IMG/VR virus record: IMGVR_UViG_3300027917_000033
Location: 1-64,000 of that record
Reading direction: 5' to 3' (one strand)
Source of the DNA: a virus
DNA length: 64,000 nucleotides
The position numbers were made by a program, and so were the translations under genes. Positions 25,604 to 64,000 of this stretch are shown here, one piece after another (within the stretch, counting starts at the first letter, position 1; each line of letters starts with the position of its first letter). Under the pieces are notes generated by a model. That model saw only the letters and a list, made by a program, of their open reading frames with translations, was not told the DNA's origin and ran no database searches.

Positions 25604-26089
25604 CTAAGTCGATTCTCTCTGCTCTTGGCGCTTAAATCCAGCTAATGACCGGAGATGGTCAGATTTCATCTTGATTGCGTCAACTATGTTGTATAACTTA
25701 CCCATAGTTCTATTCGCAAGGATAAGTTGAGTCTCTATCCTTAATAGCTCATCATCCTTTTCGACCAATTCCCTAAATACCTTTTCCGGGATTTTTGGCC
25801 AATCTTCTTTTCTCGATTCCTGTATGATCATTTCATAGGCTATAGCTCTTCTCCTTTTTGCTTTTCTATCTAAACTTGCTACTGTCGCTTTCTGTTCGCT
25901 ATATACAGCAGCCCAAAATGCAAACTCTTGCGGAGTTGTAGTTAGGTCTTCCTCCAATGTTTCGTAGTCAATCTTTAAATCGGGTCTGAAGTCTCTTTCT
26001 ACGATATTCTTTTCACCCATATCGACTCTGATTCTGATAACCCGCTTTATTAAATCTTCACTCAGATTCTCTGAGAACCAGTCCTTCAT
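25604..26089 (-). CDS. UvsY-like recombination mediator
   Basis: Helical ~160 aa between SSB and polymerase; C-terminal IVDAIKMKS..LR pattern. Confidence 0.55.
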   Translation of the reverse strand: MKDWFSENLSEDLIKRVIRIRVDMGEKNIVERDFRPDLKIDYETLEEDLTTTPQEFAFWAAVYSEQKATVASLDRKAKRRRAIAYEMIIQESRKEDWPKIPEKVFRELVEKDDELLRIETQLILANRTMGKLYNIVDAIKMKSDHLRSLAGFKRQEQREST

Positions 26090-27195
26090 CTGAAATCCCT
26101 ATAAAATTTCCATTCTTTCCAAACCTTCCCGATATATACTCTCAACGGGAATCTTGGGAACTCATCTAGCGGCTTTATCATGATATCAGATGCGGCTTTT
26201 ATGATATGTGGAACCAATCCGGGCCTGCTAGCAAATACGACCGAATCATGTGTTTCAGTCACCAGATACTTCTTTAATTCAGGTGCCATGCGTATCAAGC
26301 TTGATTGCATAGCATGCGCAACCGTTCCCTGCAGCACAGCATTAAATACACTTTTTTCGTCTCTGTCACCAATTTTAAATCGTCTACCTAGCAAAGAACT
26401 CAGGTAGCCATCCTTTGCCAACTTTTGTGCCTGTTTGATCATCCACTCTCTTAATTCAGGAAATACTTCCAATATTGGTGACTCCAAATCTATCGAGTAT
26501 ATTGTTCTAAGATATAGTCTTTTGCATTCATCACGAGGTATGTCTAATGCTTCGCTCAGCATCGTGTGTGGGTCTGACTTCTGAAAGCTCTCATTTAGGT
26601 ATTCGTCATTAGAAAACGCTGCGGCAGCTCTAATGTCAGCTGCTATCCAATCAAGACAGACTAATACGTCTTCGTCATTGCCGGTGTTTATTGGCGTACC
26701 ATTCGTTATGCCTTGCATGTTATATCTAGTACATCTAGACCTACCTGTAAACGTATCCAATTCATAGCTAGGGTAGACACGTTGCTCATCTAGGTACAAT
26801 TCTCTGCTTTCCATAACCTTATAGACTTCAGCGCTTCTGCCAAGCAAGTTCCGCCATTTGGTCGGTTGTGGGTTGGCGCTGATGATTGTTTGGAATAACA
26901 TCGCAAGTTGCTTGTCGCTTGCTCCGTTCGGTACGTGAATATTTAACTGGTTAAGCTTGCTGGTATCGAGTATGTTGAAAGCGTAGAGATGTGCTTTAGG
27001 GTTGTTTAGTAGAACCTGTGTTTTGCTTGATGTAATTATTTCTGATATCTGACTGATAGTTTTGTTAACTTCATACAAAGTTTTCCCGGTCCCCTTAGCA
27101 TACAATGGGTATGTGCTATTGTGCTCGCCATCGTTTATAAATGTAACTAGCGGCTTTGGTGGCGTGTTGCTATCGAATGCCGTAAAGATGATCAT
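26086..27195 (-). CDS. Minimal family A DNA polymerase domain
   Basis: TFTGR, motif A LDWIAADIR, motif B RxxxKxxxxxxxY, QGT, motif C THDS. Confidence 0.85.
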   Translation of the reverse strand: MIIFTAFDSNTPPKPLVTFINDGEHNSTYPLYAKGTGKTLYEVNKTISQISEIITSSKTQVLLNNPKAHLYAFNILDTSKLNQLNIHVPNGASDKQLAMLFQTIISANPQPTKWRNLLGRSAEVYKVMESRELYLDEQRVYPSYELDTFTGRSRCTRYNMQGITNGTPINTGNDEDVLVCLDWIAADIRAAAAFSNDEYLNESFQKSDPHTMLSEALDIPRDECKRLYLRTIYSIDLESPILEVFPELREWMIKQAQKLAKDGYLSSLLGRRFKIGDRDEKSVFNAVLQGTVAHAMQSSLIRMAPELKKYLVTETHDSVVFASRPGLVPHIIKAASDIMIKPLDEFPRFPLRVYIGKVWKEWKFYRDFR

Positions 27196-35474: not shown

Positions 35475-37827
35475 CTTTCATCTCCAGTGGAAGGATAATC
35501 GACCCAGGCCTTATGTTGAAACTAGAGTATTCTTCCTTCCATGCAACCCTGATTCGTATTCCGACTCCTTCCTGAAACAAAGATGGGTCATTAATTGACA
35601 ATTCGCTATTCCAGACCATGATTTTGGCCAGTTCTACACCATCAGTCACCATCATTTGCATGAATTCACCACTAGCGCCTCTGCGCATTTCTAAACTTTC
35701 TATTACAGCTTCCAGTATTCCATGTGTTTTGGCGTCTGTTACAGTGTGGCCTTCGCAATTGTAGGCATCAAGCGGCGAGTTCCAATAATACCCAAGATAC
35801 TGTTTCTCAAACGCGAGTTTTTCGGTAAACTTGTAATCGTCATATAGTTCTTCTATCTTAGTTAATGTTGGGTTTGGTTTTGGTTTCCAATTTTCTATGC
35901 TCTTAGGCACCTTTTTTCTGTTTGGGTATTGCACAAGATACTCAGCTTTTCTACGCTGTCGTTCCTTTATTATATCAGATTCTTGCCATGCAAGTTTTTC
36001 GTTGACTTCTTTCTTGATTTCCTTGTGTTCTTGGCCGGAAGTAGTATATTTGTAAAGGTACCAATGCCACAAAGCTCGCCGGTTTGGGCATATTTCGTTA
36101 AATGCGCCTAGCTTTATTAATCTCTCAAAAACTGTTTTATTCTTACCCGCTTGGACTATGAACTCATCTATTGAATCTGTGCTTCTTTCGCCAGCTATTT
36201 TCTGGGCAGCTTTGATACCTATACCTTTTATGCTTTCAAGCCCAGGCGTAACCATGTCTCCGTCAACAGAGAAAGTCGGCCCAAGCTTGCGAAAATTAAT
36301 AGCACCAAACTTAACACCTTCGGCTCTGGCTATACCCATATATCTAACTAATTTGTCGTGTTTACAATTAGACATCACCGCAGCCCACCATTCTGCTGGG
36401 TAATGTGATTTGAGCCACAAACACCTGTACGAAATAATTACGTAGGCTATCGCATGGCTAAGGTTGAAACAATACCTAGCAAATGATTCGATTTTGCTCC
36501 ACCATTCAATTGCCTTTGCGCCCCCTATTGTCTTGGTTGCGCCATCTATTACTTTGTCTTTAACCTTGGCAAGCTTGTCGGCCCACTTTTTGGCAACGGC
36601 TTTGCGTGCTGCTTCAGCTTCTGGGATTGAGAATCCACATATGTCGGTGAAGAATCTACTTAATTGTTCTTGGAACACTATAATATTGTATGTGTCTTTT
36701 AATATCGCTGTAATCCTTGGGTCCTCGTCGTCCTTCCATGATTGGCTGCTTGAATCTCTGCGTTTGATATATTCATCAACTAGAGGCAATGGCCCTGGTC
36801 TGCCAAGAGACGTATAAATCACCAGATCATTAAAGTTTTTAACACCGCCCTTTTGCAGAATGCTCTTGGCGAGGTCTGTCTCAAACTGAAAAATTGTTTC
36901 TACTCGTTTCTGGTCAGCCATTTTGATGGCCAGTGGATCACTAAACCTTATCGGTTCTCGTTTCCCATCGGCAAATACTTCCCATCCAGCTCGATCTTCT
37001 TCCGGGTCCATATTATCCCAATCTATGACCACCCCCCTATTGCCTTCAATTAATTTCTTGCAGTTCCAAATGTGTAACAAATTGGTTAGGCCAAGTATAT
37101 CGAATTTGACGAATCCAAATTTTGATAGCTGCGTGCTCCTGCCTTCTGTCCATGAAGAGGTCCATTGGCCGCCGCTTATTGTCAATGGAATATGGTCTTT
37201 GACAGGAACACTAGAGATAATCAGCCCACCAGCATGCCTACCCTGCGTTTTGATAAGTTTCACAAGTTTGTACGCCAGTGAGACTACGTTCTGGTTTCTG
37301 TCGGCATAATCTTTAAATGCCGGATAAGCATCCGCTGCCTCATCATAATCCATGTCATCAAACTCATCCGGGAGTGTCTTTGTAAGCTTTTGTATTTCGT
37401 CTATGTCTATCCCAAGAGTCCTGCATGTGTCGATTAATGCTAACTTTGGCTTGTACGTCTGCCATAAGCCGACACTGCACACCTTATCGACTCCGTATGT
37501 ATCGGCAGCATACTTCTTAATGTGGTCTCTAGCGATTGGGAGGAAATCAGAATCAATATCTGGATAATCAGGATGATATTGAATGTTTGGTTTTATGCCA
37601 GCTTCTACCGGATCGATATCGGTCAGGCCAAGTAGATGCAGCAAAACAAGACCGTTTGGATTGTCGTCGAGTTTCTCATTCTTTTCATATAATTCAACCC
37701 AGTAATCGGCCATTCCTTGCAATTCTATCTGTTCAAACTCGTATGATAGGCGTTTAGAATATGGCTTTGTGTCCGGTTTCTTAGTTAATGCAACGAGTGC
37801 AATCTTTTTGAGCTCATTCCAAGTCAT
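35464..37827 (-). CDS. dnaE: DNA polymerase III alpha, catalytic/C-terminal part
   Basis: PDIDSDF, GRHAGG, KFDILGL, IFQFE, RPGP, YCFNLSHA, IKGIG, OB-like end. Confidence 0.92.
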   Translation of the reverse strand: MTWNELKKIALVALTKKPDTKPYSKRLSYEFEQIELQGMADYWVELYEKNEKLDDNPNGLVLLHLLGLTDIDPVEAGIKPNIQYHPDYPDIDSDFLPIARDHIKKYAADTYGVDKVCSVGLWQTYKPKLALIDTCRTLGIDIDEIQKLTKTLPDEFDDMDYDEAADAYPAFKDYADRNQNVVSLAYKLVKLIKTQGRHAGGLIISSVPVKDHIPLTISGGQWTSSWTEGRSTQLSKFGFVKFDILGLTNLLHIWNCKKLIEGNRGVVIDWDNMDPEEDRAGWEVFADGKREPIRFSDPLAIKMADQKRVETIFQFETDLAKSILQKGGVKNFNDLVIYTSLGRPGPLPLVDEYIKRRDSSSQSWKDDEDPRITAILKDTYNIIVFQEQLSRFFTDICGFSIPEAEAARKAVAKKWADKLAKVKDKVIDGATKTIGGAKAIEWWSKIESFARYCFNLSHAIAYVIISYRCLWLKSHYPAEWWAAVMSNCKHDKLVRYMGIARAEGVKFGAINFRKLGPTFSVDGDMVTPGLESIKGIGIKAAQKIAGERSTDSIDEFIVQAGKNKTVFERLIKLGAFNEICPNRRALWHWYLYKYTTSGQEHKEIKKEVNEKLAWQESDIIKERQRRKAEYLVQYPNRKKVPKSIENWKPKPNPTLTKIEELYDDYKFTEKLAFEKQYLGYYWNSPLDAYNCEGHTVTDAKTHGILEAVIESLEMRRGASGEFMQMMVTDGVELAKIMVWNSELSINDPSLFQEGVGIRIRVAWKEEYSSFNIRPGSIILPLEMKDAS

Positions 37828-38198
37828 TCTTCCCTACATAATTGTCTAGCCTCGTCGCTTTTATCAAATACCACCTGTATATCTTTATCAATAATCAGAT
37901 CTCTTATTTCTTCAACTAGCTCTCTGTTGGATTTCGGCGTAAGGTCCCATGTAATTTCCTTTCCGTCTGTTTTATATTTCGTCATATTTGCTACATATTG
38001 GTTCGGCGTAGTTACTGTGACGTTCTCAATCTTGACACCCATTGCGGCAAATTTCATAGCTAATAGTTCAACACTATTAACTGTTGCGTTATCTCCGCCA
38101 TCATACACAAATGTCTTCTTTTTGTCCTTGTCTTTAACGATCACACAGAACTTAGTACCGTATTTGCCACTGACGATACCAGCCGTTTCAATCTTCAT
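37824..38198 (-). CDS. Degenerate RNase HI-fold protein
   Basis: TVNSVELLA, TTPNQYV, SNRELVEEI resemble RNase HI but two catalytic Asp are missing. Confidence 0.5.
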   Translation of the reverse strand: MKIETAGIVSGKYGTKFCVIVKDKDKKKTFVYDGGDNATVNSVELLAMKFAAMGVKIENVTVTTPNQYVANMTKYKTDGKEITWDLTPKSNRELVEEIRDLIIDKDIQVVFDKSDEARQLCREE

Positions 38199-38611
38199 GA
38201 AAGCATCTCCAAGTGTGGTATCCCAACAGACTTTGCTAATCTTTTGGCCGTTTTTAATGATGATTTGTGCCAGTCCAGAATGGCATCAACGTCGCCTTTG
38301 TCTACATCTGGCATAGTTTTCCCAATTGTCGATATTTCTTCGGGCCTAAGATTCAATATTTCGCAGAATCCAAACACTAGTGCGCGTAACGTGTGTATGA
38401 TCATGGCACCAACGTCTTCGACAATTCTTGACTCGTCTCCATTTTCATATGCTGCTGCAATCAATGATTCAACAACATCCGGCCATTTAAACATTGAATG
38501 TACAGCTATGAATTGGGTTCTACCAGCGCCTACAATCGATATATAGGCTGCTTCTAATTGCTTGGTTTTATTGATTAACTCTTTTAACTGATTTAATTTC
38601 GTTGGCGTCAT
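38195..38611 (-). CDS. Hypothetical protein
   Basis: Coupled ORF. Confidence 0.65.
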   Translation of the reverse strand: MTPTKLNQLKELINKTKQLEAAYISIVGAGRTQFIAVHSMFKWPDVVESLIAAAYENGDESRIVEDVGAMIIHTLRALVFGFCEILNLRPEEISTIGKTMPDVDKGDVDAILDWHKSSLKTAKRLAKSVGIPHLEMLS

Positions 38612-38945
38612 ATATGTCTAACTTTAATTCTCCTTCGGCTATTCTTATGCCCGATTCAGTACCTTGTATCAGTAGGTGATTGTAAGGTAAGATATTCAAA
38701 GCTATTCTCTTATTCGATGGTATCCGCCACACCCTACCTATTTTGTTATCATAAATATTTACAATTGTGGATATCATTTCCTTTAGTTTCGATATGTTGT
38801 CCAACCTGGCAAAAAACCTCAATTCGTTTGTGAAGTTTTTGTGCGTTGTATTCAAATAGCAATCATCACTGTTTCCAGTCGGATCTATCATTATACTAAT
38901 AGCGCAGAACCCTCTCGACCTTAGTAACTCTATTGCATCGATCAT
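38568..38945 (-). CDS. Hypothetical protein
   Basis: Coupled ORF. Confidence 0.6.
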   Translation of the reverse strand: MIDAIELLRSRGFCAISIMIDPTGNSDDCYLNTTHKNFTNELRFFARLDNISKLKEMISTIVNIYDNKIGRVWRIPSNKRIALNILPYNHLLIQGTESGIRIAEGELKLDIYDANEIKSVKRVNQ

Positions 38946-40333
38946 TCTGCTTTTACATTCAACAGATAACCACCCCTGCTTGGTGACAAAAACCTATTAA
39001 ACGACAGCTTCCATTTTAGTGGATTGAGGCTATGAATTCCTAGCAGATAACATAGCAGTGAGCCGCCCGCTGATCCTCGCGCTGGGCCAACGTCCCATCC
39101 ATTATCTCTTGAATATTGTACTAAATCCATCATTATCAGGAAGTATGATGCAAAACCTTTTGATATTATTCTCTTAAGCTCCTTTTCTACCTGTTGTTTG
39201 TGAGTTACCATTTCGCCGTCCATATGGTATTTAGTCTCGTCGTTGAATAAATTGTGCTTTTTTAGTCTGTCAAATGCAAGCAATGTCAGTTTTCTGTCGG
39301 CATCTGGTATAGACGGCAATTTTGGCGATAGGTCCGGATCGAATCCGTCGCACTTATCTGCTGCGATAATTGTATTGTCACATATCTCTTCGAATTTGTC
39401 GATTGTTACACCATTGCTGTAGCCTTCATCATAAAATGTGGTCCTTAAGTCCGCTCTCGTCTTAAAGAACTGTTCATCCGAATTGACTATAAATAATTCC
39501 GGGTTATCCATCGTGGTGTTCTGGTCTATTGCCATCATGCATTTTTGAACTTCGAAGTCCTCTCTCTTGATGTAGTGACTATCGTTGGTCAACACACCCT
39601 TTATCCTGAATTTATCAGACCAGCCAGCACACATCGCGAACGCCTCTATAGATCCTTCTAGGTCTTTGCCTGGCATTTGCATTTCAATGTACAAGTCATC
39701 TCCGAATATTTCATACATTTTGTGCAACCAATCTTTGGCGATGTCCAAATACCTCTTGGCCGCCGATCTGTTTTTTTCTTTCATGGCCAAGTATGCTAAC
39801 CTGATTTCGTGGCATAGCGGGCCGTTTAGGCAGCCAGTTAATACAAGCAAGCCTTCCCTATGCTTGTCCAGTCTATCGAGCCAAACCCTTGGTTTGTAAT
39901 AGAATCCTATATCCCACGCAGTTGATGTCATATGAATTAGGTTACGATACCCAACTTTGTTTTTGGCCAGTACTGTCAAATGTCTTTGCCTCCTCAAGCG
40001 TTCATATCTCTCAGGGTCAACCAGCTTCAAGGAGGCCCATTTTTGTCCACTAGCCTGGAATTCTTTTAATTCATTGTGATAATCATTGTAGTACACTTCG
40101 CAACCTGCGATGAATTTCACCTTATGCTTTTTGGCGGCAAAATATGCGTCTGGAAATGATGCTAGACTACCATGGTCTGTGATTGCTACGGCTGGCATTC
40201 CAAGTTCAACGCATCTTTCCATATAATCGTTTGGTGATGCTATTCCGTCCAATGGTGAAAATATTGAATGGGTGTGTAGATGGACGAAATTAGTTGGACC
40301 TGGATATTTATCTGCCATCTGGCTCGACGTCAC
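38942..40333 (-). CDS. dnaE: DNA polymerase III alpha, N-terminal part (PHP domain)
   Basis: FVHLHTHS, AITDHG, GCE, YYKPR, TNDSHY, GPARGSAGGSL, FNRFL. Confidence 0.92.
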   Translation of the reverse strand: MTSSQMADKYPGPTNFVHLHTHSIFSPLDGIASPNDYMERCVELGMPAVAITDHGSLASFPDAYFAAKKHKVKFIAGCEVYYNDYHNELKEFQASGQKWASLKLVDPERYERLRRQRHLTVLAKNKVGYRNLIHMTSTAWDIGFYYKPRVWLDRLDKHREGLLVLTGCLNGPLCHEIRLAYLAMKEKNRSAAKRYLDIAKDWLHKMYEIFGDDLYIEMQMPGKDLEGSIEAFAMCAGWSDKFRIKGVLTNDSHYIKREDFEVQKCMMAIDQNTTMDNPELFIVNSDEQFFKTRADLRTTFYDEGYSNGVTIDKFEEICDNTIIAADKCDGFDPDLSPKLPSIPDADRKLTLLAFDRLKKHNLFNDETKYHMDGEMVTHKQQVEKELKRIISKGFASYFLIMMDLVQYSRDNGWDVGPARGSAGGSLLCYLLGIHSLNPLKWKLSFNRFLSPSRGGYLLNVKAE

Positions 40334-57344: not shown

Positions 57345-58976
57345 TTACATTTGAGGAGAATCTGGCCCCATTCCGAGAGCAAGCATTTGGATTTTAATCA
57401 TTGATTCGTATCTCTTAACTTGATTGGCGCTGATTCCTAAATAGTCAGCAATATCAGCCTTTTTGGGGTTGCTGCCATAGGTCTTCTTGAAGTCGGCTGG
57501 CGGGTCCACTTTGATGGCAATATATTTTATGGCCAGATCTGGCAGTTTTTCAAGTAGTGTACGCATAGCATCCCTACTAAGTAAGGAGTTAAAACTTGCG
57601 GACAACATATCCTTGTCTGCTATTTGCGACTCTAGCACATCCCTAACAGTCTTATCGCTATCATTGCTGTGTGGCTCATCAAACGATCTCGTCTGGTTGA
57701 ACCTCGTTTCGACAATCTTTCTTGATATTATTGGCTGATCGCCGTTTGGATATACGTAGATTCCTTCATTTTCTACGGCTTTGACACTAACGTTATAACC
57801 AAGAAACTCGCGTTTGATTTCTGCAATTTTGATTGTCATTGCCCGGGGGAGCAAATTGGTTTCAGTTTTGATCAAATTGTTATCGATTTCAAATTTGATC
57901 GAATCTTTGGAGTTTTGTAGCATTGAGGCGATGAGCTGCAAAGCCACATCCTGGGCTTCACCCTTAACCACTCTCGTTATTTTAGTCATTGGTCTCTTAT
58001 TCTCCTTTAGTATCTGGCCAAAGAATTCCCACCCGAAAGTCTTCATCAACTTGAACATCTGTTTATCGTCAAAGATGACCGACAGGTTGGGCGTCTTGGC
58101 CCTGATGATCAGATGGATCGGACTAAGGCCTTGGATGACGATATAGTGCGGCTTACCTTGTGACACAGTGAACTTGTCTTTTAATTTGTCATAAGCCAGC
58201 TGCATCATTTTGAGATCTGAGCCGATTATTGCTGGTCTAGAACCATAACCAAGTTTGATCCCAGATGGGAAGGCTTGTGTTATGGTTACTTTTTTGCCTA
58301 AATCTGGTCCGGATACAATTTCGACAACATCGCCTGGCCTAATTGGTGTTTTGTCAAACGTCCCGAACGGACCACTAAAAATTTGTCTGTGGCTGTTCCA
58401 CCATGGCGTCATCGGCCCCAATATTGTGCGACCATCCCTGCTTATGGTAAACTTGGTCTGATCGTTTGGGTTACATAACAAACCACGATCACTAATAGAG
58501 ACTGTTTTGGTGCTGTCCGGTGTACAAATATGAATTGTGTGCTCTGGCGGGATTGGCAAATTTTCGTTAATCAATATCGAGACGTTACCAATCTCGATGA
58601 TGTTGTTATCATAAATGATCCCCTTTTTCCTGGATTTTTTGCCATTGACTAAGCATTCACCATATGCACGGTATTCTAGTGGGGTATGGTATGTTACTGA
58701 GAGGACTGCTCTCCATGCAGCGATCCAGAATTCAGTTTCTGCGGCATCTGAAAGATCTCGGTATTCACCCTTTATTGTTCTGGCTAGCTGCTTTTTGAAT
58801 TCGCTTTTGTGCGGGGCCATTTCCGGGTCATCGATCAGTCTTTTGGTAATTTGATCGATGTTTATGCTTTGGTCCCGGTTGAGGTTCTTGGAGGTGAAGT
58901 TGACGAGACTTCCCCTTACGCAAAGACGGGCTACTTGCATCTTCTGCTCCTTCTTTTTTTCTTCCCGAAATGTCAA
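57345..58976 (-). CDS. Divergent sigma70-like factor with large insertion
   Basis: Region 2-like EFWIAAWRAV; region 3.2-like SFDEP...TVRDVL; region 4 HTH DIADYLGISANQVKRY. Confidence 0.55.
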   Translation of the reverse strand: MTFREEKKKEQKMQVARLCVRGSLVNFTSKNLNRDQSINIDQITKRLIDDPEMAPHKSEFKKQLARTIKGEYRDLSDAAETEFWIAAWRAVLSVTYHTPLEYRAYGECLVNGKKSRKKGIIYDNNIIEIGNVSILINENLPIPPEHTIHICTPDSTKTVSISDRGLLCNPNDQTKFTISRDGRTILGPMTPWWNSHRQIFSGPFGTFDKTPIRPGDVVEIVSGPDLGKKVTITQAFPSGIKLGYGSRPAIIGSDLKMMQLAYDKLKDKFTVSQGKPHYIVIQGLSPIHLIIRAKTPNLSVIFDDKQMFKLMKTFGWEFFGQILKENKRPMTKITRVVKGEAQDVALQLIASMLQNSKDSIKFEIDNNLIKTETNLLPRAMTIKIAEIKREFLGYNVSVKAVENEGIYVYPNGDQPIISRKIVETRFNQTRSFDEPHSNDSDKTVRDVLESQIADKDMLSASFNSLLSRDAMRTLLEKLPDLAIKYIAIKVDPPADFKKTYGSNPKKADIADYLGISANQVKRYESMIKIQMLALGMGPDSPQM

Positions 58977-59032
58977 AATATTTGGCCATTTATCTGGAGT
59001 GTATTTTACGCAATAACCTTAAGGAGACAAAA

Positions 59033-59461
59033 ATGTACGTGATATCAGAAGAACTGGAATTTGATTGGACACAATGGCAGCAAGATGGTAATCTCTATGC
59101 CTGGGAGAGGTTGCAAGAACAAATTTACAAGATGTGCATGGGTATCGCAATTAAATTTCGCCCCATAAATGAAGAAGAGCACCGAGAACTGGCACACGAA
59201 TCATTTGTGCTTACTATGGCCAAAATAAGGGATGGACGGCTTACTTTCGACGACAGGGCTCCAGTGTTTAATCTGCTGACAACTACAATTTTCAGGCACC
59301 TGTACAGCCTAAAGAACAAAGACAGCAGGCGGCGTAACGCGATGAATAAATACGCTAAGAAAATCTTGAATAAGTCTCAAACCAAAGAACAATTATCAAC
59401 CTCGCAATTAAATCACATTTGGGACTCTCTGTCAAGTATTGGCGTTACATCGCAAAAATAA
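59033..59461 (+). CDS. gp55-like late sigma factor
   Basis: aaggag RBS; IYKMCMGIA...ELAHES...PVFNLLTTTI resembles gp55 region 2. Confidence 0.55.
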   Translation: MYVISEELEFDWTQWQQDGNLYAWERLQEQIYKMCMGIAIKFRPINEEEHRELAHESFVLTMAKIRDGRLTFDDRAPVFNLLTTTIFRHLYSLKNKDSRRRNAMNKYAKKILNKSQTKEQLSTSQLNHIWDSLSSIGVTSQK

Positions 59462-59465
59462 TTAT

Positions 59466-60458
59466 ATGAAACTGAAACCAAATTTACGCCCAAGACCTAA
59501 TCTACTCAAGACCCCGAAGATACCGGCATCTATATCCGTACAACCTAAGAACGCGGTTAAAATACCTACGATTCATTCGAAGCCAATATCTGTTGTTAGA
59601 GCTGTTACAAGAAATAGGCCAAAACCGGTGGCTAGGCCAAAACCAAGTGGCGTCCAAACAGTTTCGAAGAAAGCTTATGTTGTCAGGAAGCGGTCACTAA
59701 CTAATGTCCGCCCCAGCCATCTGAGGAAAGCACACGATGCTCTTCTTGGGAAGCATACCGACAAGATAAGAGAATTGATCGGCTCCGGACATGGTAGAAT
59801 ATTAATTATTATTGCGTGTGGGCCGTCCGTAAATCAAGCAGATTTCGAAAAGCTGAAAGAGCATTCAAAAATTGACTTTTTATGTGTGAACAAGCCAGAC
59901 ATGAGGGTTTGGCCATCTAAATATTGGGTATTCTGTGACCAGTCCCAATACAATAGGAACCAAGAATATTGGCCAGGGTATAAAGGCACCATTATCAATG
60001 CATCGTCGGTAAGGGCAAACCACCCAAAGCAGATCCTAATAAGAACATTGGCTGGTAAAGGATTTTCTAGAGATATGACTAAGGGGTTTCACATAGGTAG
60101 ATCTACTACATATGCGTCAATGCAAGTGGCACTGTATATGGGATACAACAAAATCTACATTTATGGTTGTGACATGAGTGCTGTTGATGGCCAAATGCAT
60201 AGGTATGGGCAAAACCCTGACGTTTCAAACGAAAATAGGCTGAAGAGATTCGATAAAGAAGCTGAAAATTATGATTGGGCTCTTCGCGGCATGAAGCAGC
60301 ATGAAATAGACAAGTTCTTTTTTTGCTCATCACATAATCCTTATGGTTTTGCCGATATGTTTGGTAGGCTTGACCAAATAGATGCGCATATAACTATTTT
60401 GCGAGAAGCCAATGAATTAATGACCAAGAAAGAAGAATCTGAGCTAGCAAAAATATAA
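59466..60458 (+). CDS. Maf/MptE/sialyltransferase-like Rossmann protein with basic N-terminus
   Basis: IIIACGPSV, CVN, STTYASMQVALYMGYNKIYIYGCD. Confidence 0.7.
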   Translation: MKLKPNLRPRPNLLKTPKIPASISVQPKNAVKIPTIHSKPISVVRAVTRNRPKPVARPKPSGVQTVSKKAYVVRKRSLTNVRPSHLRKAHDALLGKHTDKIRELIGSGHGRILIIIACGPSVNQADFEKLKEHSKIDFLCVNKPDMRVWPSKYWVFCDQSQYNRNQEYWPGYKGTIINASSVRANHPKQILIRTLAGKGFSRDMTKGFHIGRSTTYASMQVALYMGYNKIYIYGCDMSAVDGQMHRYGQNPDVSNENRLKRFDKEAENYDWALRGMKQHEIDKFFFCSSHNPYGFADMFGRLDQIDAHITILREANELMTKKEESELAKI

Positions 60459-60480
60459 TGGATTTTTAAGGGAACGCATT

Positions 60481-60993
60481 ATGGCCAAAAAGGGTGCGCC
60501 AATGGGCAAGGGAAATGTTGGTAAAACTTCTTCAAAGACTTCGGCCAAGGGTGCCCACGGAGGCGGCATTAAATTTGGCCAGGTTGTGCTTGGCAGTGGA
60601 TTCAAGACTATTAACAAGGGAATCAATAAAGCAAAATCTGCAGCAAAGCTACCAAAACCAAAGAATAACATTTCTGAAAGCACAAGCCCGCTAACTAGGC
60701 CTCCAGTGTCGCTTGGGAATGGATTTGGAACAAATCCGTATCTTAGAGCTGAGGCCAAAGCCGTCAGCAAGAAATGGGGGCAGTCTGCGTTAAAGAAAGC
60801 TGCCAAGCCGCCCTCGAAAGGTGGTACCAAAGGCTCTCTGCGCCGCATGATGGGCAAGGGTGAAGGTGAGAAAATAACTAGATCTGAACTTAAGGCGGTG
60901 ATTGATAACCCAAGAAGTTCTGCCAAAAAGAAGCAAAAAGCATTAGCAATATATAATCTTGGTGGTGGGGCGAAGGGCAAAAATGGGAAATAA
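60481..60993 (+). CDS. Lys/Gly-rich basic protein (possible DNA-condensing core protein)
   Basis: Very K/G/A/S-rich; caaaaatataa upstream. Confidence 0.65.
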   Translation: MAKKGAPMGKGNVGKTSSKTSAKGAHGGGIKFGQVVLGSGFKTINKGINKAKSAAKLPKPKNNISESTSPLTRPPVSLGNGFGTNPYLRAEAKAVSKKWGQSALKKAAKPPSKGGTKGSLRRMMGKGEGEKITRSELKAVIDNPRSSAKKKQKALAIYNLGGGAKGKNGK

Positions 60994-61027: not shown

Positions 61028-61651
61028 ATGTGCATGAACCTATTAAAAAACACCAGTTGCTATTTGGCAGGCCCGGTTGAGCACGACAAGAAAGCCACAT
61101 CTTGGAGACAGGATGTGGCTTCTTTCTTATCGGCCAGAAGCGTCAGATCGTACGACCCGCTAATTAAACCACCATGGTTGGACGACATATGCCATGTTGA
61201 TCCGTCTTTATATAAAAAAGCACTAGACGGCGAAACGCAGGTAGACGAAATAAACGGCAAAACGATCGAAATAAAGCCGAGCGACGTTATCGAAGCAAAT
61301 CATATGATGCGTGTTGCTTGCATGCGTATCGTACACGCGGTTGATTGGGTGATCTGTTATTTGCCCATCAAATTCACTGTTGGAACGTTCGAAGAAATAT
61401 TCGAAGCAATCCGAGTCGGCAAACCTGTGTTCTTCTGCTGTCCTAATGGCATACCGTCAACATGGATCTTGTCTGCTGTTGCACGGAATATGAACGAACG
61501 AGAGCGCTATTTCTTTGAAGATTGGGATTCACTAAAAGAGCATATTGTTAGCATAGATATGGGTCTTGTAAAGTTGGACCCAGTTAAGTGGATGTTTTTG
61601 GCGTGGCTCGACTGGGACAAGTACCCGATAGAAACACCGGCATGGAGGTGA
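61028..61651 (+). CDS. Nucleoside 2-deoxyribosyltransferase / dNMP N-glycosidase-like protein
   Basis: YLAGP, WR, YDP, GTFEE (catalytic Glu motif GTxxE), KPV. Confidence 0.78.
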   Translation: MCMNLLKNTSCYLAGPVEHDKKATSWRQDVASFLSARSVRSYDPLIKPPWLDDICHVDPSLYKKALDGETQVDEINGKTIEIKPSDVIEANHMMRVACMRIVHAVDWVICYLPIKFTVGTFEEIFEAIRVGKPVFFCCPNGIPSTWILSAVARNMNERERYFFEDWDSLKEHIVSIDMGLVKLDPVKWMFLAWLDWDKYPIETPAWR

Positions 61652-61654
61652 AAA

Positions 61655-62323
61655 ATGTATAATATAACCGGGAAAATGGAAATCAACATGATCACTCCGG
61701 AGATTGATCCCGCCGCAACATCGAACTTTGCCATGAAATATAGATGCCCGGCAATTGTAATGAAGCCAGAATTTGTTCCGGCCATGATTGTTGATAGGTC
61801 AGCGAAGAGCGGGCAGTATAAAATTATTTCCGCAATCGATTTCCCAAACGGTAAGAATTTTGCCCTAGATAAGCTCAAGAACATTGATCCGATGGGGTTG
61901 GAAGTTGATGGTATGGATATCCTACTGTCGCAGAGGGCCGAAATAGATGTGATGAATGAGCTGAAGACTCTGAAAGAGTTGATCAGGCAGACGATAAACC
62001 CGGCCATGAGCATCAGGGTTGTTCTTAGATGTCATAGTTCTGAATGGAGTAACGTTAAGAACTGTTTTGAAGCAATCAAGAAGCACGCCCCCGATATGAT
62101 TCGTGTAGACCCACATCTTGAATTGCCTAAAGTCGGTTTGGAAGAACATATTGAGTGTTATAGGAAACTGCGCGAAGTGATTGCCAAGCCAGTTAAAATC
62201 TCTGGTAATGTTGATCTAAAGACCATCGAAGAGATTAGTAAAATAGATAAGAATGCCAGATTCGACGTCAATCCGAAGCAGGCATATAATATCGTGAACG
62301 AATTAAACAAAAGAGAGGAATAA
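61655..62323 (+). CDS. DeoC-like TIM barrel, catalytic Lys apparently replaced
   Basis: AIDFPNG, DGMDI, IRVVL, DMIRV (cf. DFVKTS), VKISG. Confidence 0.65.
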   Translation: MYNITGKMEINMITPEIDPAATSNFAMKYRCPAIVMKPEFVPAMIVDRSAKSGQYKIISAIDFPNGKNFALDKLKNIDPMGLEVDGMDILLSQRAEIDVMNELKTLKELIRQTINPAMSIRVVLRCHSSEWSNVKNCFEAIKKHAPDMIRVDPHLELPKVGLEEHIECYRKLREVIAKPVKISGNVDLKTIEEISKIDKNARFDVNPKQAYNIVNELNKREE

Positions 62324-63580
62324 ATGTTTAATACTAACGACATCTTCCATCCAGGCAAATTGACTATCTGCATGGATGCCAGTGCAGGGAGTTCTGGCAA
62401 GGGAAAAGTAGCATCATTCATCTGCGAACACGCAGACAATTGGCAATTTTGTTGCAACACGTTCTCGGCTCAGGCTGGACATTGGGTGAAATTCGAAGAT
62501 AAAACATACTTTTATCAGACCTTCAATAGCTGTGCATATTCTGATAAGTATGAAAAGATGTACATAGGGCCCGGCGCTTCTATGGAATACGAGGCCTTTT
62601 TCAACGAGATGGAAGAGAACAATATTGCGCCGGAAAGAATAGGCATCCACCCGCTATGCGCAATCATTCAAGGCAAAGACGCCGCTTTTGAACGCGGAGA
62701 AGTGGATCTGGATGGAAATCCGGCCAAACACACGGGAACTATGGAGAAAGGTTCTACTTGCCACGGGGTGGGAGTCTGTCGTGCCAGGCGCGTCCTGCGC
62801 AGATCAGATGTCTTGTTGGCCAAAGACGTGCCAGAATTGCAAAGGTTTGTATGCGATACGACCGAGGAGATCACAGGCCGTTTGGAAGCTGGTCAGGCTG
62901 GGCTCCTTGAGATAGCACAAGGATTCCAGTTAAGTCTAATGTTGGAGAAAATGTACCCGTTTACAACAAGTAGGAATGTTACCGTTGCCGCTGGCTTCGA
63001 TGATATGATGCTGCCAATAAAGTACGCTGGTGATATCGTCATGAATTGCCGCACATATCCGATTAGGATTAACAGCAACAAATACCTTGACCCAGATGAC
63101 GGCCACCATCTGGTATGGGATGAAATAGAGCAATATAAGAAAGAGGGCAGGGAGATTACGATATACAAAGGCGATTCAGGACCTGGATACAGTGACCAAA
63201 AGGAAATCAGTTGGGATCATCTGACCGAAATCAGCGGGTCGCCAGAACCCATAATGGAAATGACATCCGTAACCAAGCTTCCTAGGAGGGTGTTCACATT
63301 CAGCCAAGAAAATATCAAGCAAGCGATCAAGTACAATGACACTGGTTGCACGATTTATTTGTCGGTGAATTTTGCTAACTATGTCGATCATGAAATTACA
63401 GGCAAACGTGGCGTGGTGGAACAGCCAGCGCTAATTGGTGATAATCTTACTAGCAAATTTAAGGTATGGATACAGCGTAACATATTACCGCTGCTGGGCG
63501 ATAATGTCAAGTTGCGGTTTGTTGGCACCGGACCCCTTACTGATGACATGATTGTGGTTGGCGAAACATGGCCGGAATGA
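62324..63580 (+). CDS. purZ: Adenylosuccinate-synthetase family protein with PurZ signatures
   Basis: GSSGKG, AGH, QGF, YPFTTSR, RTYPIR, TSVTKLPRRVF, NFAN, GTGP. Confidence 0.82.
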   Translation: MFNTNDIFHPGKLTICMDASAGSSGKGKVASFICEHADNWQFCCNTFSAQAGHWVKFEDKTYFYQTFNSCAYSDKYEKMYIGPGASMEYEAFFNEMEENNIAPERIGIHPLCAIIQGKDAAFERGEVDLDGNPAKHTGTMEKGSTCHGVGVCRARRVLRRSDVLLAKDVPELQRFVCDTTEEITGRLEAGQAGLLEIAQGFQLSLMLEKMYPFTTSRNVTVAAGFDDMMLPIKYAGDIVMNCRTYPIRINSNKYLDPDDGHHLVWDEIEQYKKEGREITIYKGDSGPGYSDQKEISWDHLTEISGSPEPIMEMTSVTKLPRRVFTFSQENIKQAIKYNDTGCTIYLSVNFANYVDHEITGKRGVVEQPALIGDNLTSKFKVWIQRNILPLLGDNVKLRFVGTGPLTDDMIVVGETWPE

Positions 63581-64000
63581 AGAAAATTGTGATCACTGGC
63601 GGTGCGGGCTACATCGGGTCGCTTCTCACTGGCAAGTTTATAGACAGTGGGTATGAAGTCGCGGTCATTGATAAGTTATTGTTCGGTGGCGATCATATGC
63701 TGTGCTATAATCGTGACCAATTTTCTTTGCACCCATATGATATAATGGATATGCCAGATGGTCTGCTTAGCTCGATATGCAGTGGTGCCGATGCAGTTGT
63801 ACATTTGGCAGCATTGGTTGGCTTCCCGGCCTGTCAGCAAGTAGGCCCTTCCGTGTCTAAACGTTACAATGTTGATACCACAAAGAAAATGTTTGATATT
63901 GCGAATGCCGAAGGAGTGGAGAGATTCGTTTTTGCATCTACATACAGCAATTATGGTAAATCATCAGATGGTAAGCCTGTAACTGAGGAATCGCCTCTAA
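63577..64000 (+). CDS. NAD-dependent epimerase/dehydratase (truncated by window end)
   Basis: MKKIVITGGAGYIGS, VVHLAALVG, FASTYSNYG; ATGA-coupled to purZ. Confidence 0.9.
   Translation, partial: MKKIVITGGAGYIGSLLTGKFIDSGYEVAVIDKLLFGGDHMLCYNRDQFSLHPYDIMDMPDGLLSSICSGADAVVHLAALVGFPACQQVGPSVSKRYNVDTTKKMFDIANAEGVERFVFASTYSNYGKSSDGKPVTEESPL

Follow-up and report, generated by a model that had tools for sequence, protein, structure and literature searches.

A PurZ-class gene beside an NDT-fold gene and a lysine-less DERA-like gene in an uncultured phage: a possible nucleotide-pool remodelling module

The window analysed here comprises the first 64,000 nucleotides of IMG/VR record IMGVR_UViG_3300027917_000033, which in full is an 87,842 bp linear fragment of an uncultured phage, rated 24% complete. 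Four genes on the plus strand are found at its end, spanning 61028-64566. ORF 1 (61028-61651) encodes a 207-aa protein of the NDT fold, ORF 2 (61655-62323) a 222-aa protein of the DERA (DeoC-like) fold, ORF 3 (62324-63580) a 418-aa homologue of adenylosuccinate synthetase of the Ser-type PurZ class, and ORF 4 (63568-64566, of which 63568-64000 lies in the window) a 332-aa sugar-nucleotide SDR. The genes are separated by +3 nt and 0 nt and then overlap by 13 nt, and are therefore tightly packed, in agreement with the original prediction. The operon had also been expected to run past the window end; it does cross it, but stops 566 bp beyond, and a minus-strand ORF (64563-65114) is next. Directly upstream of the unit are three more plus-strand genes (58970-60993). 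A scan for promoters and terminators gave counts no better than those of shuffled sequences.

The structure of the NDT-fold protein (61028-61651, plus strand) was modelled with AlphaFold2 (pLDDT 88.1), and the best Foldseek matches of the model were the NDT 8pqr (9.6e-6), MilB and DNPH1. By sequence it falls below the Pfam gathering scores of both PF15891 (23.7 bits, cut-off 30) and PF05014 (17.9 bits, cut-off 28.8), and the profile of its family, which has 27 matches in the database searched, found nothing relevant in the PDB. From hhalign and the family alignment the candidate residues are Y12, E18, P44, N91, T117-V118-G119, E123 and W146; Y12, E18, P44, G119, E123 and W146 are invariant across 19 family members, and the N91 position is Asn in 17 of the 19. 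The DmtZ enzyme of PurZ0 phages (2026) is a dAMP hydrolase, which strips adenine and moves the deoxyribose-5-phosphate to the Z base (PMC12884076). The window protein was aligned to DmtZ by hhalign (76.7%, E 2.1e-5; with local settings 19%, E 1.2e-3, 50 columns), and this weak map pairs Y12 with Tyr6, V17 with Val11, E18 with Asp12, P44 with Pro57, N91 with Asn77, V118-G119 with Val98-Gly99, E123 with Glu103 and W146 with Trp124. Every DmtZ functional residue named in the available portion of PMC12884076 (the Tyr6/Asn77/Glu103 triad, Asp12, Val98-Gly99, Pro57 and Trp124) thus has a counterpart. Part of the similarity between the two proteins is to be expected from their common superfamily alone.

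The neighbouring 222-aa barrel (61655-62323, plus strand) was modelled with a pLDDT of 92.8, and the PDB matches listed by Foldseek are deoxyribose-phosphate aldolases (E down to 1.5e-12, TM 0.69-0.79), the sole exception being a designed Kemp eliminase built on a barrel of DERA type. It also aligns with nine DeoC sequences (hhalign, 72.3%, E 3.3e-5). The NDT-like, DeoC-like barrel and epimerase (SDR) labels originally given to these genes all hold, the first two from Foldseek searches with the AlphaFold2 models and the third from PF01370. The DERA-like family comprises 230 cluster representatives at E <= 0.001, with 16 matches in the database that gave the 27 NDT-like ones. None of 14 members matched PF01791 at E <= 10, Pfam scans gave chance matches only, and the family profile retrieved nothing relevant from the PDB; ten longer members contain no fused domain, their tails being disordered and charged. 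The barrel and DERA have in common an FPxG loop with a Lys seven residues past its glycine. Furthermore, DERA Asp102 corresponds to D88 (acidic, D or E, in 146/146 family representatives) and Lys201 to K181 (kept in 137/146). The Schiff-base Lys167 on strand 6 of E. coli DERA, as placed by hhalign, is R150, a position with Arg in 142/146 representatives and Lys in the other four, and Lys137 is R121 (Arg in 140/146). With the Schiff-base lysine replaced in this way, the protein is probably not an aldolase, as judged from its residues. A working DeoC aldolase was rejected on the Arg at both positions, and with it the proposal that a DeoC would consume released deoxyribose-5-phosphate.

Across related loci, what is conserved is a core of two genes, the NDT/DERA-like pair, and the position of PurZ varies. 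Of the 17 loci that extend far enough upstream, 13 have the NDT-like gene immediately before the DERA-like one, and among the other four is L105, in which the NDT slot is filled by a different, PF05014-like NDT-fold ORF. Co-occurrence of the pair with purZ had been put forward as a check on the prediction, and it was borne out in part: a PurZ-like gene is on the same locus as the pair in 14 of 21 loci, and a Ser-type PurZ-like gene is carried by all five related virus records with the pair, the complete one included, although these are not independent events as the linked loci are relatives with common synteny. Adjacency is not conserved, however, as PurZ may adjoin the pair, lie a few kb from it or be 170 kb away. 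A conserved four-gene operon was ruled out because both the position of PurZ and the presence of the SDR vary among the 21 loci.

This variation bears on a somewhat unlikely reading, in which the pair is unconnected with PurZ and serves general dNMP salvage or pool editing (for instance of dCMP, dUMP or a modified pyrimidine nucleotide), with a mobile PurZ as its neighbour by chance of lineage. In the complete 370 kb relative G004, the pair is 170 kb from PurZ and is followed downstream by a dCTP-deaminase/dUTPase-like gene, an exonuclease and a Nudix gene, and in L006 a dCMP deaminase follows the pair and PurZ is 3.3 kb away, so the pair may serve pyrimidine or general dNMP metabolism. The PurZ-like genes of L006 and L009 adjoin large homing-endonuclease-like ORFs, and two PurZ-like genes contain intein-sized insertions. 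The same database also gave at least 608 matches for the PurZ-like family against the 27 and 16 for the NDT-like and DERA-like families, and a distant NDT-like gene is present in the 595-kb phage LR756511.1, from which PurZ and the DERA-like gene are both absent. Against such a separation are the co-occurrence in all five virus records, the presence of PurZ within a few kb in 14 of the 21 loci, the E18 aligned to DmtZ Asp12, whose acidic side chain fits an amino-purine, and the pairing with the DERA-like gene, which survives replacement of the NDT in L105.

The 418-aa PurZ-class protein (62324-63580, plus strand) matches PF00709 (55.7 bits) and phrog_1211 (4.7e-31). It does not reach the cut-off of the PurZ profile NF038379 (135.1 bits, cut-off 300), and its score against the archaeal PurA profile NF003295 (135.3 bits, cut-off 368) is on par, so the PurZ label is backed by residues and not by a curated cut-off; its placement relative to archaeal PurA is judged from profile scores and residues. 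A contig scan steered by the Ser-type motif gave Ser-type loci alone. In its P-loop, GSSGKGK, S23 occupies the position of PurA Asp13 and aligns with S14 of phiVC8, and xGSSGK is found in 118 of the 120 best homologues. PurZ T262, F295 and Y298 correspond to T314, F350 and Y353 (NFANY motif), and N[FY]xNY is present in 114/120. The PurA of P. horikoshii has GDEGKG in the same alignment and no NFxNY-type motif, this ATP-site motif being shared with PurZ only. The PurZ Phe12 position is occupied by Ala here and in 99/120 homologues, and by Phe in 13/120. Searched against the PDB, the PurZ-like profile scored 190.5 bits with phiVC8 PurZ, 154.9 with S-2L PurZ, 152.9 with P. horikoshii PurA and 89.6 with PurZ0. 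The protein also carries an insertion of ~30 residues. It matched 61 phage records at E <= 1e-5, all at <33% identity, with S-2L, SH-Ab 15497 and PMBT28 among the matches listed. The best named PurZ-like match, Flavobacterium phage MaF61, was set aside as a counterpart of the locus, its NDT, DERA-like and SDR neighbours all being absent.

It had been stated that the window contains no HD-type DatZ or MazG-type MazZ, and indeed no match to PF01966, PF12917 (YfbR-like), PF13023 (HD_3), PF03819 (MazG) or PF04447 (DUF550) was found at E <= 1 across the 87,842-bp record. That the operon stands instead of datZ/mazZ does not follow, as three quarters of the genome are unseen, so the absence says little, and the complete relative G004 has one MazG-domain gene; an HD-family gene was looked for in G004 and none was found. 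No Dut-type gene was found in the 88-kb record, and no phage adenylosuccinate lyase in six records. The replicase of the window's phage is DnaE-type and not DpoZ. An unlikely reading is that the 418-aa enzyme serves a huge phage as an auxiliary in purine synthesis, acting on ribonucleotides (IMP/GMP) to raise the pools of adenine or 2-aminoadenine ribonucleotides, while the DNA is ordinary. The equal PurA and PurZ scores, the missed PurZ cut-off, the Ala at Phe12, the absence of a DatZ-type dATPase even from the complete relative and the DnaE-type replicase would all be consistent with it. The Ser in 118/120 homologues argues otherwise, as Asp13 is catalytic in PurA and conserved in 99% of sequences (PMC12884076), as does the PurZ-only NFxNY motif; moreover, S-2L is itself described as lacking DpoZ in the available part of PMC8065100.

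The 332-aa protein (63568-64566, plus strand) is an extended SDR of the epimerase/dehydratase family and matches PF01370 (1.7e-19), and its best NCBIfam match is GalE (96 bits, far below the GalE cut-off). The best solved relative is 6vo6 (1.2e-49), which we take to be Cj1427, a GDP-heptose C4-dehydrogenase. As the SDR is present in only five of the 21 related loci, all near relatives of the window, an epimerase as a core pathway member was ruled out. The part in a nucleotide route that had been assigned to it was not borne out either, as the solved structure closest to it belongs to a sugar-nucleotide enzyme; it is most likely a lineage-specific add-on that acts on a nucleotide sugar. Upstream, a 339-aa protein (59439..60458, plus strand) has a basic N-terminal third and a C-terminal part that weakly resembles MptE and sialyl- or Kdo-transferases (PF01973, 4.6e-5, and WaaZ TIGR04437, 1.4e-4, both below cut-off; phrog_4603, 8.7e-7), and a homologue is found upstream of the pair in 15/21 related loci. 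The lysine/glycine-rich, basic 170-aa protein that follows (60481..60993, plus strand) matches no known family, and was detected by tblastn in L003, L004 and weakly L007 among six loci searched. A sugar/glycan module, in which DNA or virion proteins would be decorated with a sugar made and attached by the products of the transferase-like, DERA-like and SDR genes, PurZ being a bystander, would draw on the weak likeness of the 339-aa protein to CMP-sugar transferases, the sugar-nucleotide relative of the SDR and the basic regions of two neighbouring proteins, but is highly improbable given that the SDR is missing from 16/21 loci, that every transferase match is below cut-off and that the constant partner of the DERA-like gene is an NDT-fold gene amid nucleotide-metabolism genes.

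We tentatively prefer, as a possible explanation, that an uncultured jumbo phage with a replicase of the DnaE type remodels its nucleotide pool by means of a module formed by the PurZ-class enzyme, the DmtZ-like NDT and the DERA-derived barrel. The folds, residue patterns and gene linkage of the module are seen directly; the chemistry that follows is predicted. With a succinyl intermediate, the PurZ-class enzyme would aminate a guanine nucleotide on the way to nucleotides of 2-aminoadenine (Z), a step that host adenylosuccinate lyase would complete. The NDT-fold protein, as a putative remote functional analogue of DmtZ, would cut a 5'-phosphorylated deoxypurine nucleotide (most likely dAMP) at its glycosidic bond via a covalent Glu123 intermediate, and would either release the base or hand the deoxyribose-5-phosphate to another base, lowering the adenine pool. 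The barrel, for which the inference is weakest, may bind or convert a sugar phosphate or nucleotide; lacking the Schiff-base Lys, it would probably do so by chemistry other than DeoC-like cleavage. The SDR would be a lineage-specific passenger, most likely with a nucleotide-sugar substrate. Of the adenine-stripping route first proposed, what stands is an NDT-fold gene that adjoins a PurZ-class gene and weakly aligns to DmtZ, and what does not are the DeoC and epimerase steps. With a PurZ-type enzyme, a DmtZ-like neighbour and a lysine-less aldolase-shaped protein together, Z-DNA in this phage is plausible on sequence grounds.

In the available literature, Z genomes and adenine-excluding helpers are those of small phages, exemplified by the 40-55 kb records that the 418-aa protein matched. 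The Ser-type PurZ relatives counted above are on contigs of up to 370 kb, and this family occurs in giant phages; if these do use Z, the base would have a much wider distribution than assumed so far, and a DnaE-type replicase would be compatible with it. A bolder version, which we consider quite unlikely, is that a widespread clade of DnaE-type jumbo phages makes Z-DNA without DatZ, using a long PurZ together with a remote enzyme of the DmtZ type and a Lys-to-Arg DERA-derived barrel that holds or converts deoxyribose-5-phosphate, the NDT and barrel forming a two-part machine in which adenine is taken off dAMP and the sugar phosphate is re-used to make dZMP. The lysine-less DERA-like family itself is unnamed, is consistently coupled to an NDT-fold gene, was not found in the Z-DNA literature searched, and offers biochemistry a concrete target at low cost.

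Compared with the classical PurZ/DatZ/MazZ(/DpoZ) systems of S-2L, phiVC8 and SH-Ab 15497, the window enzyme is alike in its Ser at Asp13 and its T262/F295/Y298 equivalents, and phiVC8 PurZ is its best solved match. It differs in identity (~28%), in length (418 aa against ~340-365), in the Ala for Phe12 and in falling below the NF038379 cut-off, and its phage differs in having a DnaE-type replicase and a jumbo genome, with no HD DatZ found in the fragment or the complete relative. The barrel is like DeoC/DERA in its TIM-barrel fold, FPxG loop and Asp102 and Lys201 equivalents, but belongs to a separate family with Arg at Lys167 and Lys137 and no PF01791 match. Yang et al. (bioRxiv 10.1101/2025.10.22.683976) describe NDT-M2, a purine deoxyribosyltransferase that prefers dA and comes from metagenomes enriched in dZ. 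It too is of the NDT family, and it has a statistical association with dZ phages; it is set apart, by its description in the available part of the preprint rather than by sequence, in its nucleoside substrates, its PF05014 membership and its lack of PurZ co-localisation.

The closest parallel is DmtZ, and the idea of NDT-type adenine removal beside PurZ is already published for other phages. In both cases an NDT-superfamily protein that is sub-cut-off in Pfam (DmtZ scores 18.3 bits on PF05014) is encoded near a Ser-type adenylosuccinate-synthetase homologue, and the Tyr/Asn/Glu triad, the acidic residue after Pro-Val, a Thr-Val-Gly that replaces the 5'-OH-binding Asp-Ser-Gly, Pro57 and the lid Trp are matched. 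The two are nevertheless distinct: there is no BLAST-level similarity, and tblastn with the window NDT matched no DmtZ phage at E <= 1, placing it outside the monophyletic DmtZ group of PurZ0 phages. DmtZ homologues are present in 116 records, all actinobacteriophages of ~43-45 kb and confined to phages of Arthrobacter, Gordonia and Streptomyces. The window NDT is longer than DmtZ by 46 residues, and its AlphaFold2 model shows an inserted hairpin; DmtZ has an adjacent or fused dutZ (Dut-type), of which no counterpart was found in the 88-kb record, and a PurZ0 partner, whereas the 418-aa enzyme is nearer PurZ than PurZ0; and it is the window-type NDT that is followed by a DERA-like gene. The literature searched gave no report joining PurZ with jumbo, huge or mega phages, though supplementary PurZ genome lists and trees may include the clade, and for DmtZ or PurZ with DeoC/DERA only PMC12884076, in the available portion of which DeoC is an assay reagent. 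What looks new here is a DERA-like partner without the lysine, and the setting in a jumbo phage with a DnaE-type replicase.

The window is a piece of a jumbo-phage genome, since proteins identical to two of the studied genes are encoded on a protein-database contig of 261,688 bp and relatives extend to 370,804 bp; its source record is linear, 87,842 bp long and 24% complete (CheckV), of which the window covers the first 64,000 bases. The four genes had been described as tightly packed and as running past the window end, and both points were borne out. The NDT-like gene 1 (61028-61651), the DeoC-like gene 2 (61655-62323), the PurZ-like gene 3 (62324-63580) and the SDR gene 4 (63568-64566, crossing the window end) are all on the + strand, with spacings of 3 nt and 0 nt and then a 13-nt overlap, and the unit stops 566 bp beyond the window as the following ORF is on the opposite strand. 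Three more + strand genes lie upstream (58970-59461, 59439-60458 and 60481-60993). Within 59439-60993, a transferase-like protein has a strongly basic, proline-rich N-terminal region of ~120 residues and the gene after it (60481-60993) encodes a basic, Lys/Gly-rich product; both are conserved upstream of the NDT-like/DERA-like pair, and might bind nucleic acids. A 15-bp perfect hairpin, likely a terminator, is located at genome positions 65592-65624 (L001:5592-5624, + strand), just 3' of a conserved 136-aa gene (65161-65571).

The 418-aa product of gene 3 matches PF00709 (55.7 bits) and phrog_1211. In NCBIfam its scores of 135.1 bits for PurZ and 135.3 bits for archaeal PurA are both under the model cut-offs (300 and 368, respectively), so it is neither by curated thresholds. 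Residues were mapped onto the phiVC8 PurZ chain using the list in bioRxiv 10.1101/2025.10.22.683976. S23 aligns to phiVC8 S14, the Asp13 position of PurA, T314 to T262, F350 and Y353 to F295 and Y298, and W297 and Y289 to W252 and Y244 of PurZ, and the PurZ F12 position is Ala. PMC12884076 reports that every one of 147 phage PurZ-group sequences has Ser at the Asp13 site and that 99% of PurA have Asp there. A profile built from eight members of the gene-3 clade was compared with PDB sequences and scored 190.5 bits with phiVC8 PurZ, 154.9 with S-2L PurZ, 152.9 with P. horikoshii PurA and 89.6 with PurZ0 (7vf6); P. horikoshii PurA differs in having GDEGKG, and shows no NFxNY motif in the alignment with this profile. 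Among the best 120 of 608 database homologues, xGSSGK is found in 118 and N[FY]xNY in 114, and the residue preceding the motif glycine is mostly Ala (99 sequences), with Phe in 13. We conclude from these comparisons that the protein, though long and divergent, probably belongs to the Ser-type PurZ class. Bacterial genomes and MAGs also hold 70 loci (L021-L090) encoding Ser-type (GS[SC]GK) PurA-like proteins with 22-52% identity, and these may be prophage genes or cellular PurZ-like genes. Most are in MAGs of gut Clostridia and Bacilli, with others in Chondromyces and Sorangium, and the 52% identical protein is on a 441-kb Pirellulales MAG contig (L021).

Twenty-one related loci from IMG/VR and metagenomes were scanned with a profile of each gene, the DERA-like gene being the selection criterion and so present in 21/21 by construction. 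A PurZ-like gene is on the same locus in 14, the window-type NDT-like gene is directly upstream of the DERA-like gene in 13, the transferase-like upstream gene occurs in 15 and the SDR in five, counts that are non-independent as the loci share synteny. Scores are identical within L003/L004/L097 and within L008/L099. Four of the eight loci without the NDT-like gene begin within the DERA-like gene or shortly ahead of it, and L101 and L103-L105 have no window-type NDT-like gene at E <= 1e-5. L105, the sole locus of these four that was inspected for a replacement, has between the transferase-like and DERA-like genes another ORF, of 228 aa, that matches PF05014 weakly (E 0.0011). Of the seven loci without a PurZ-like gene, L092, L102 and L107 end <=0.4 kb from the DERA-like gene; downstream sequence amounts to ~1 kb in L104, 2.6 kb in L103 and >3.7 kb in L008/L099.

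L008 is part of G004, a relative of 370,804 bp with terminal repeats, rated 100% complete. Linkage of purZ to the pair is seen in the 14 loci, and a PF00709 gene is present in 5/5 related virus records, but in G004 the PurZ-like gene (375 aa, Ser-type) is 170 kb from the pair, adjoining a homing-endonuclease-like ORF. Next after the pair in that genome come genes for a dCTP-deaminase/dUTPase-like protein, an exonuclease and a Nudix protein, none of which has a homologue in the 88-kb record. In L006 the pair is separated from PurZ, which itself has an intein-sized insertion, by a dCMP deaminase, an exonuclease and a large endonuclease-like ORF. Neither a PF00709 gene nor the DERA-like gene is present in a 595-kb phage that has a distant NDT-like gene. 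The account with the best support, put forward tentatively, is of one nucleotide-pool module in which a PurZ-class enzyme would act with a predicted dNMP N-glycosidase/transferase, remotely DmtZ-like, and with the constant DERA-derived barrel, which has lost the lysine and whose chemistry probably differs from that of DeoC. The main rival, to us only somewhat less likely, is that the pair has a role in nucleotide metabolism at large or in that of pyrimidines and is linked to PurZ by ancestry only.

In the PurZ-like genes of L006 (751 aa; L006:11051-13306) and L105 (>812 aa; L105:5137-7572), the conserved halves are parted by a few hundred extra residues that resemble an intein containing a homing-endonuclease region. 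Endonuclease-like ORFs of 548 and 555 aa adjoin PurZ in L006 and G004 (L009:6218-7885), and in G004 the second gene downstream of the PurZ-like one encodes a DUF6378 protein (PF19905, 9.3e-12; L009:9525-9815).

The original suggestion that these genes stand in for datZ and mazZ was not supported. HD, YfbR-like, HD_3 and DUF550 matches at E <= 1 were absent from the window's record, three fragmentary relatives and the complete G004, so there is no DatZ-type HD enzyme in the one complete relative. MazG was not found in the window's 24%-complete record, but G004 has one 133-aa ORF (PF03819, 28.1 bits) ~132 kb from the pair and thus, if gene order is kept, outside the span of the 88-kb fragment; replacement of mazZ is therefore not supported. 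A Lyase_1 (PurB) gene was not detected in six records. The replicase is a split DnaE-type with a short PolA-like ORF alongside. The DnaE-type matches are in two separate ORFs of 789 and 466 aa (window 37090-39211 and 26086-27195, minus strand), and these and the PolA-like ORF (~370-386 aa) are conserved in G004 and another relative, G001.

Profile scans of gene 2 gave no family match in Pfam, PHROG or NCBIfam. Its structure model (14 homologues) has a pLDDT of 92.8, and the Foldseek PDB matches listed (E down to 1.5e-12, TM 0.69-0.79) are deoxyribose-phosphate aldolases, the single exception being a Kemp eliminase whose design used a DERA-type barrel. With hhalign, the family matched a set of nine DeoC sequences, one from E. 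coli and eight from plasmids, at 72.3% (E 3.3e-5), and at 56% (1.1e-4) in a local run; the DeoC-like label is right as a fold. Against E. coli DeoC, E9 aligns to D16, D88 to D102, R121 to K137, R150 to the Schiff-base lysine K167 and K181 to K201, and the FPxG loops coincide. An exhaustive profile search recovered 230 cluster representatives at E <= 0.001. The window protein and 149 listed matches were aligned, less four under 180 aa, and among these 146 sequences 142 have Arg and four have Lys at position 150, R121 is kept in 140 and K181 in 137, and all have an acidic residue at position 88 and K73. Judged by these residues, the known Schiff-base mechanism of DERA is not available to this protein. 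Many members (P0182, P0220, P0222, P0245, P0264 and others) end in a C-terminal tail of 30-130 residues that is variable, disordered and charged, and in which no Pfam domain was found.

Gene 4 encodes an extended SDR (PF01370), its top NCBIfam match being GalE, far under cut-off, and is a predicted lineage-specific passenger. The nearest solved relative is 6vo6 (1.2e-49), labelled a putative sugar-nucleotide epimerase/dehydratase, which we take to be Cj1427. PMC10680097 describes Cj1427 as a GDP-heptose C4-dehydrogenase.

In the literature, supplements aside, no paper was found that links a DERA-like protein to PurZ or places PurZ in jumbo phages. A role for NDTs in the Z pathway is already published: in phages Ghobes and Wayne, DmtZ acts both as a dAMP hydrolase and as a transferase of deoxyribose-5-phosphate to the Z base (PMC12884076), and dZ-enriched metagenomes yielded an NDT preferring dA (bioRxiv 10.1101/2025.10.22.683976). 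Ghobes DmtZ is gene 53 of KX557278 (L020:42692-43177), the sole ORF of ten checked with Y6, D12, Q13, P57, N77, E103 and W124. Its GenBank label, 'deoxyuridine triphosphatase', looks outdated, since every DmtZ residue named in PMC12884076 is present.

Gene 1 matches Pfam under cut-off (PF15891, 23.7 bits; PF05014, 17.9 bits), and its AlphaFold2 model (19 homologues; pLDDT 88.1) has as top Foldseek PDB matches Chroococcidiopsis NDT (9.6e-6), MilB, DNPH1 and other NDTs. Aligned by hhalign with Ghobes gene 53 and four Arthrobacter phage homologues, the gene 1 family gave 76.7% probability (E 2.1e-5, 102 columns), and in a second run with other settings only 19.1% (E 1.2e-3, 50 columns), where six unrelated alignment pairs gave 0.1-1.3% (E 0.042-0.68). 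Gene 1 residues Y12, V17, E18, H19, P44, N91, T117-V118-G119, E123 and W146 align with DmtZ Y6, V11, D12, Q13, P57, N77, T97-V98-G99, E103 and W124, respectively. A tblastn search of 50,697 phage records with gene 1 returned no DmtZ phage at E <= 1 and two weak matches only, and DmtZ homologues (116 records) are actinobacteriophage genes throughout, which places gene 1 outside the DmtZ group even though its functional residues are the same. The suggestion that an NDT-fold enzyme strips adenine from dAMP or swaps bases is in print for DmtZ (PMC12884076), and the named residues are matched, but the alignment is weak.

Directly after the pair in G004 (L008:7671-8363) is a dCTP-deaminase/dUTPase-fold gene (PF22769, 2.3e-30), whose product has 24% identity over 83 aa (pairwise E 4e-4), a superfamily-level likeness only, to Ghobes gene 55, presumably a DutZ-type gene. 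The G004 gene could be a Dut-type partner such as DmtZ has in PurZ0 phages.
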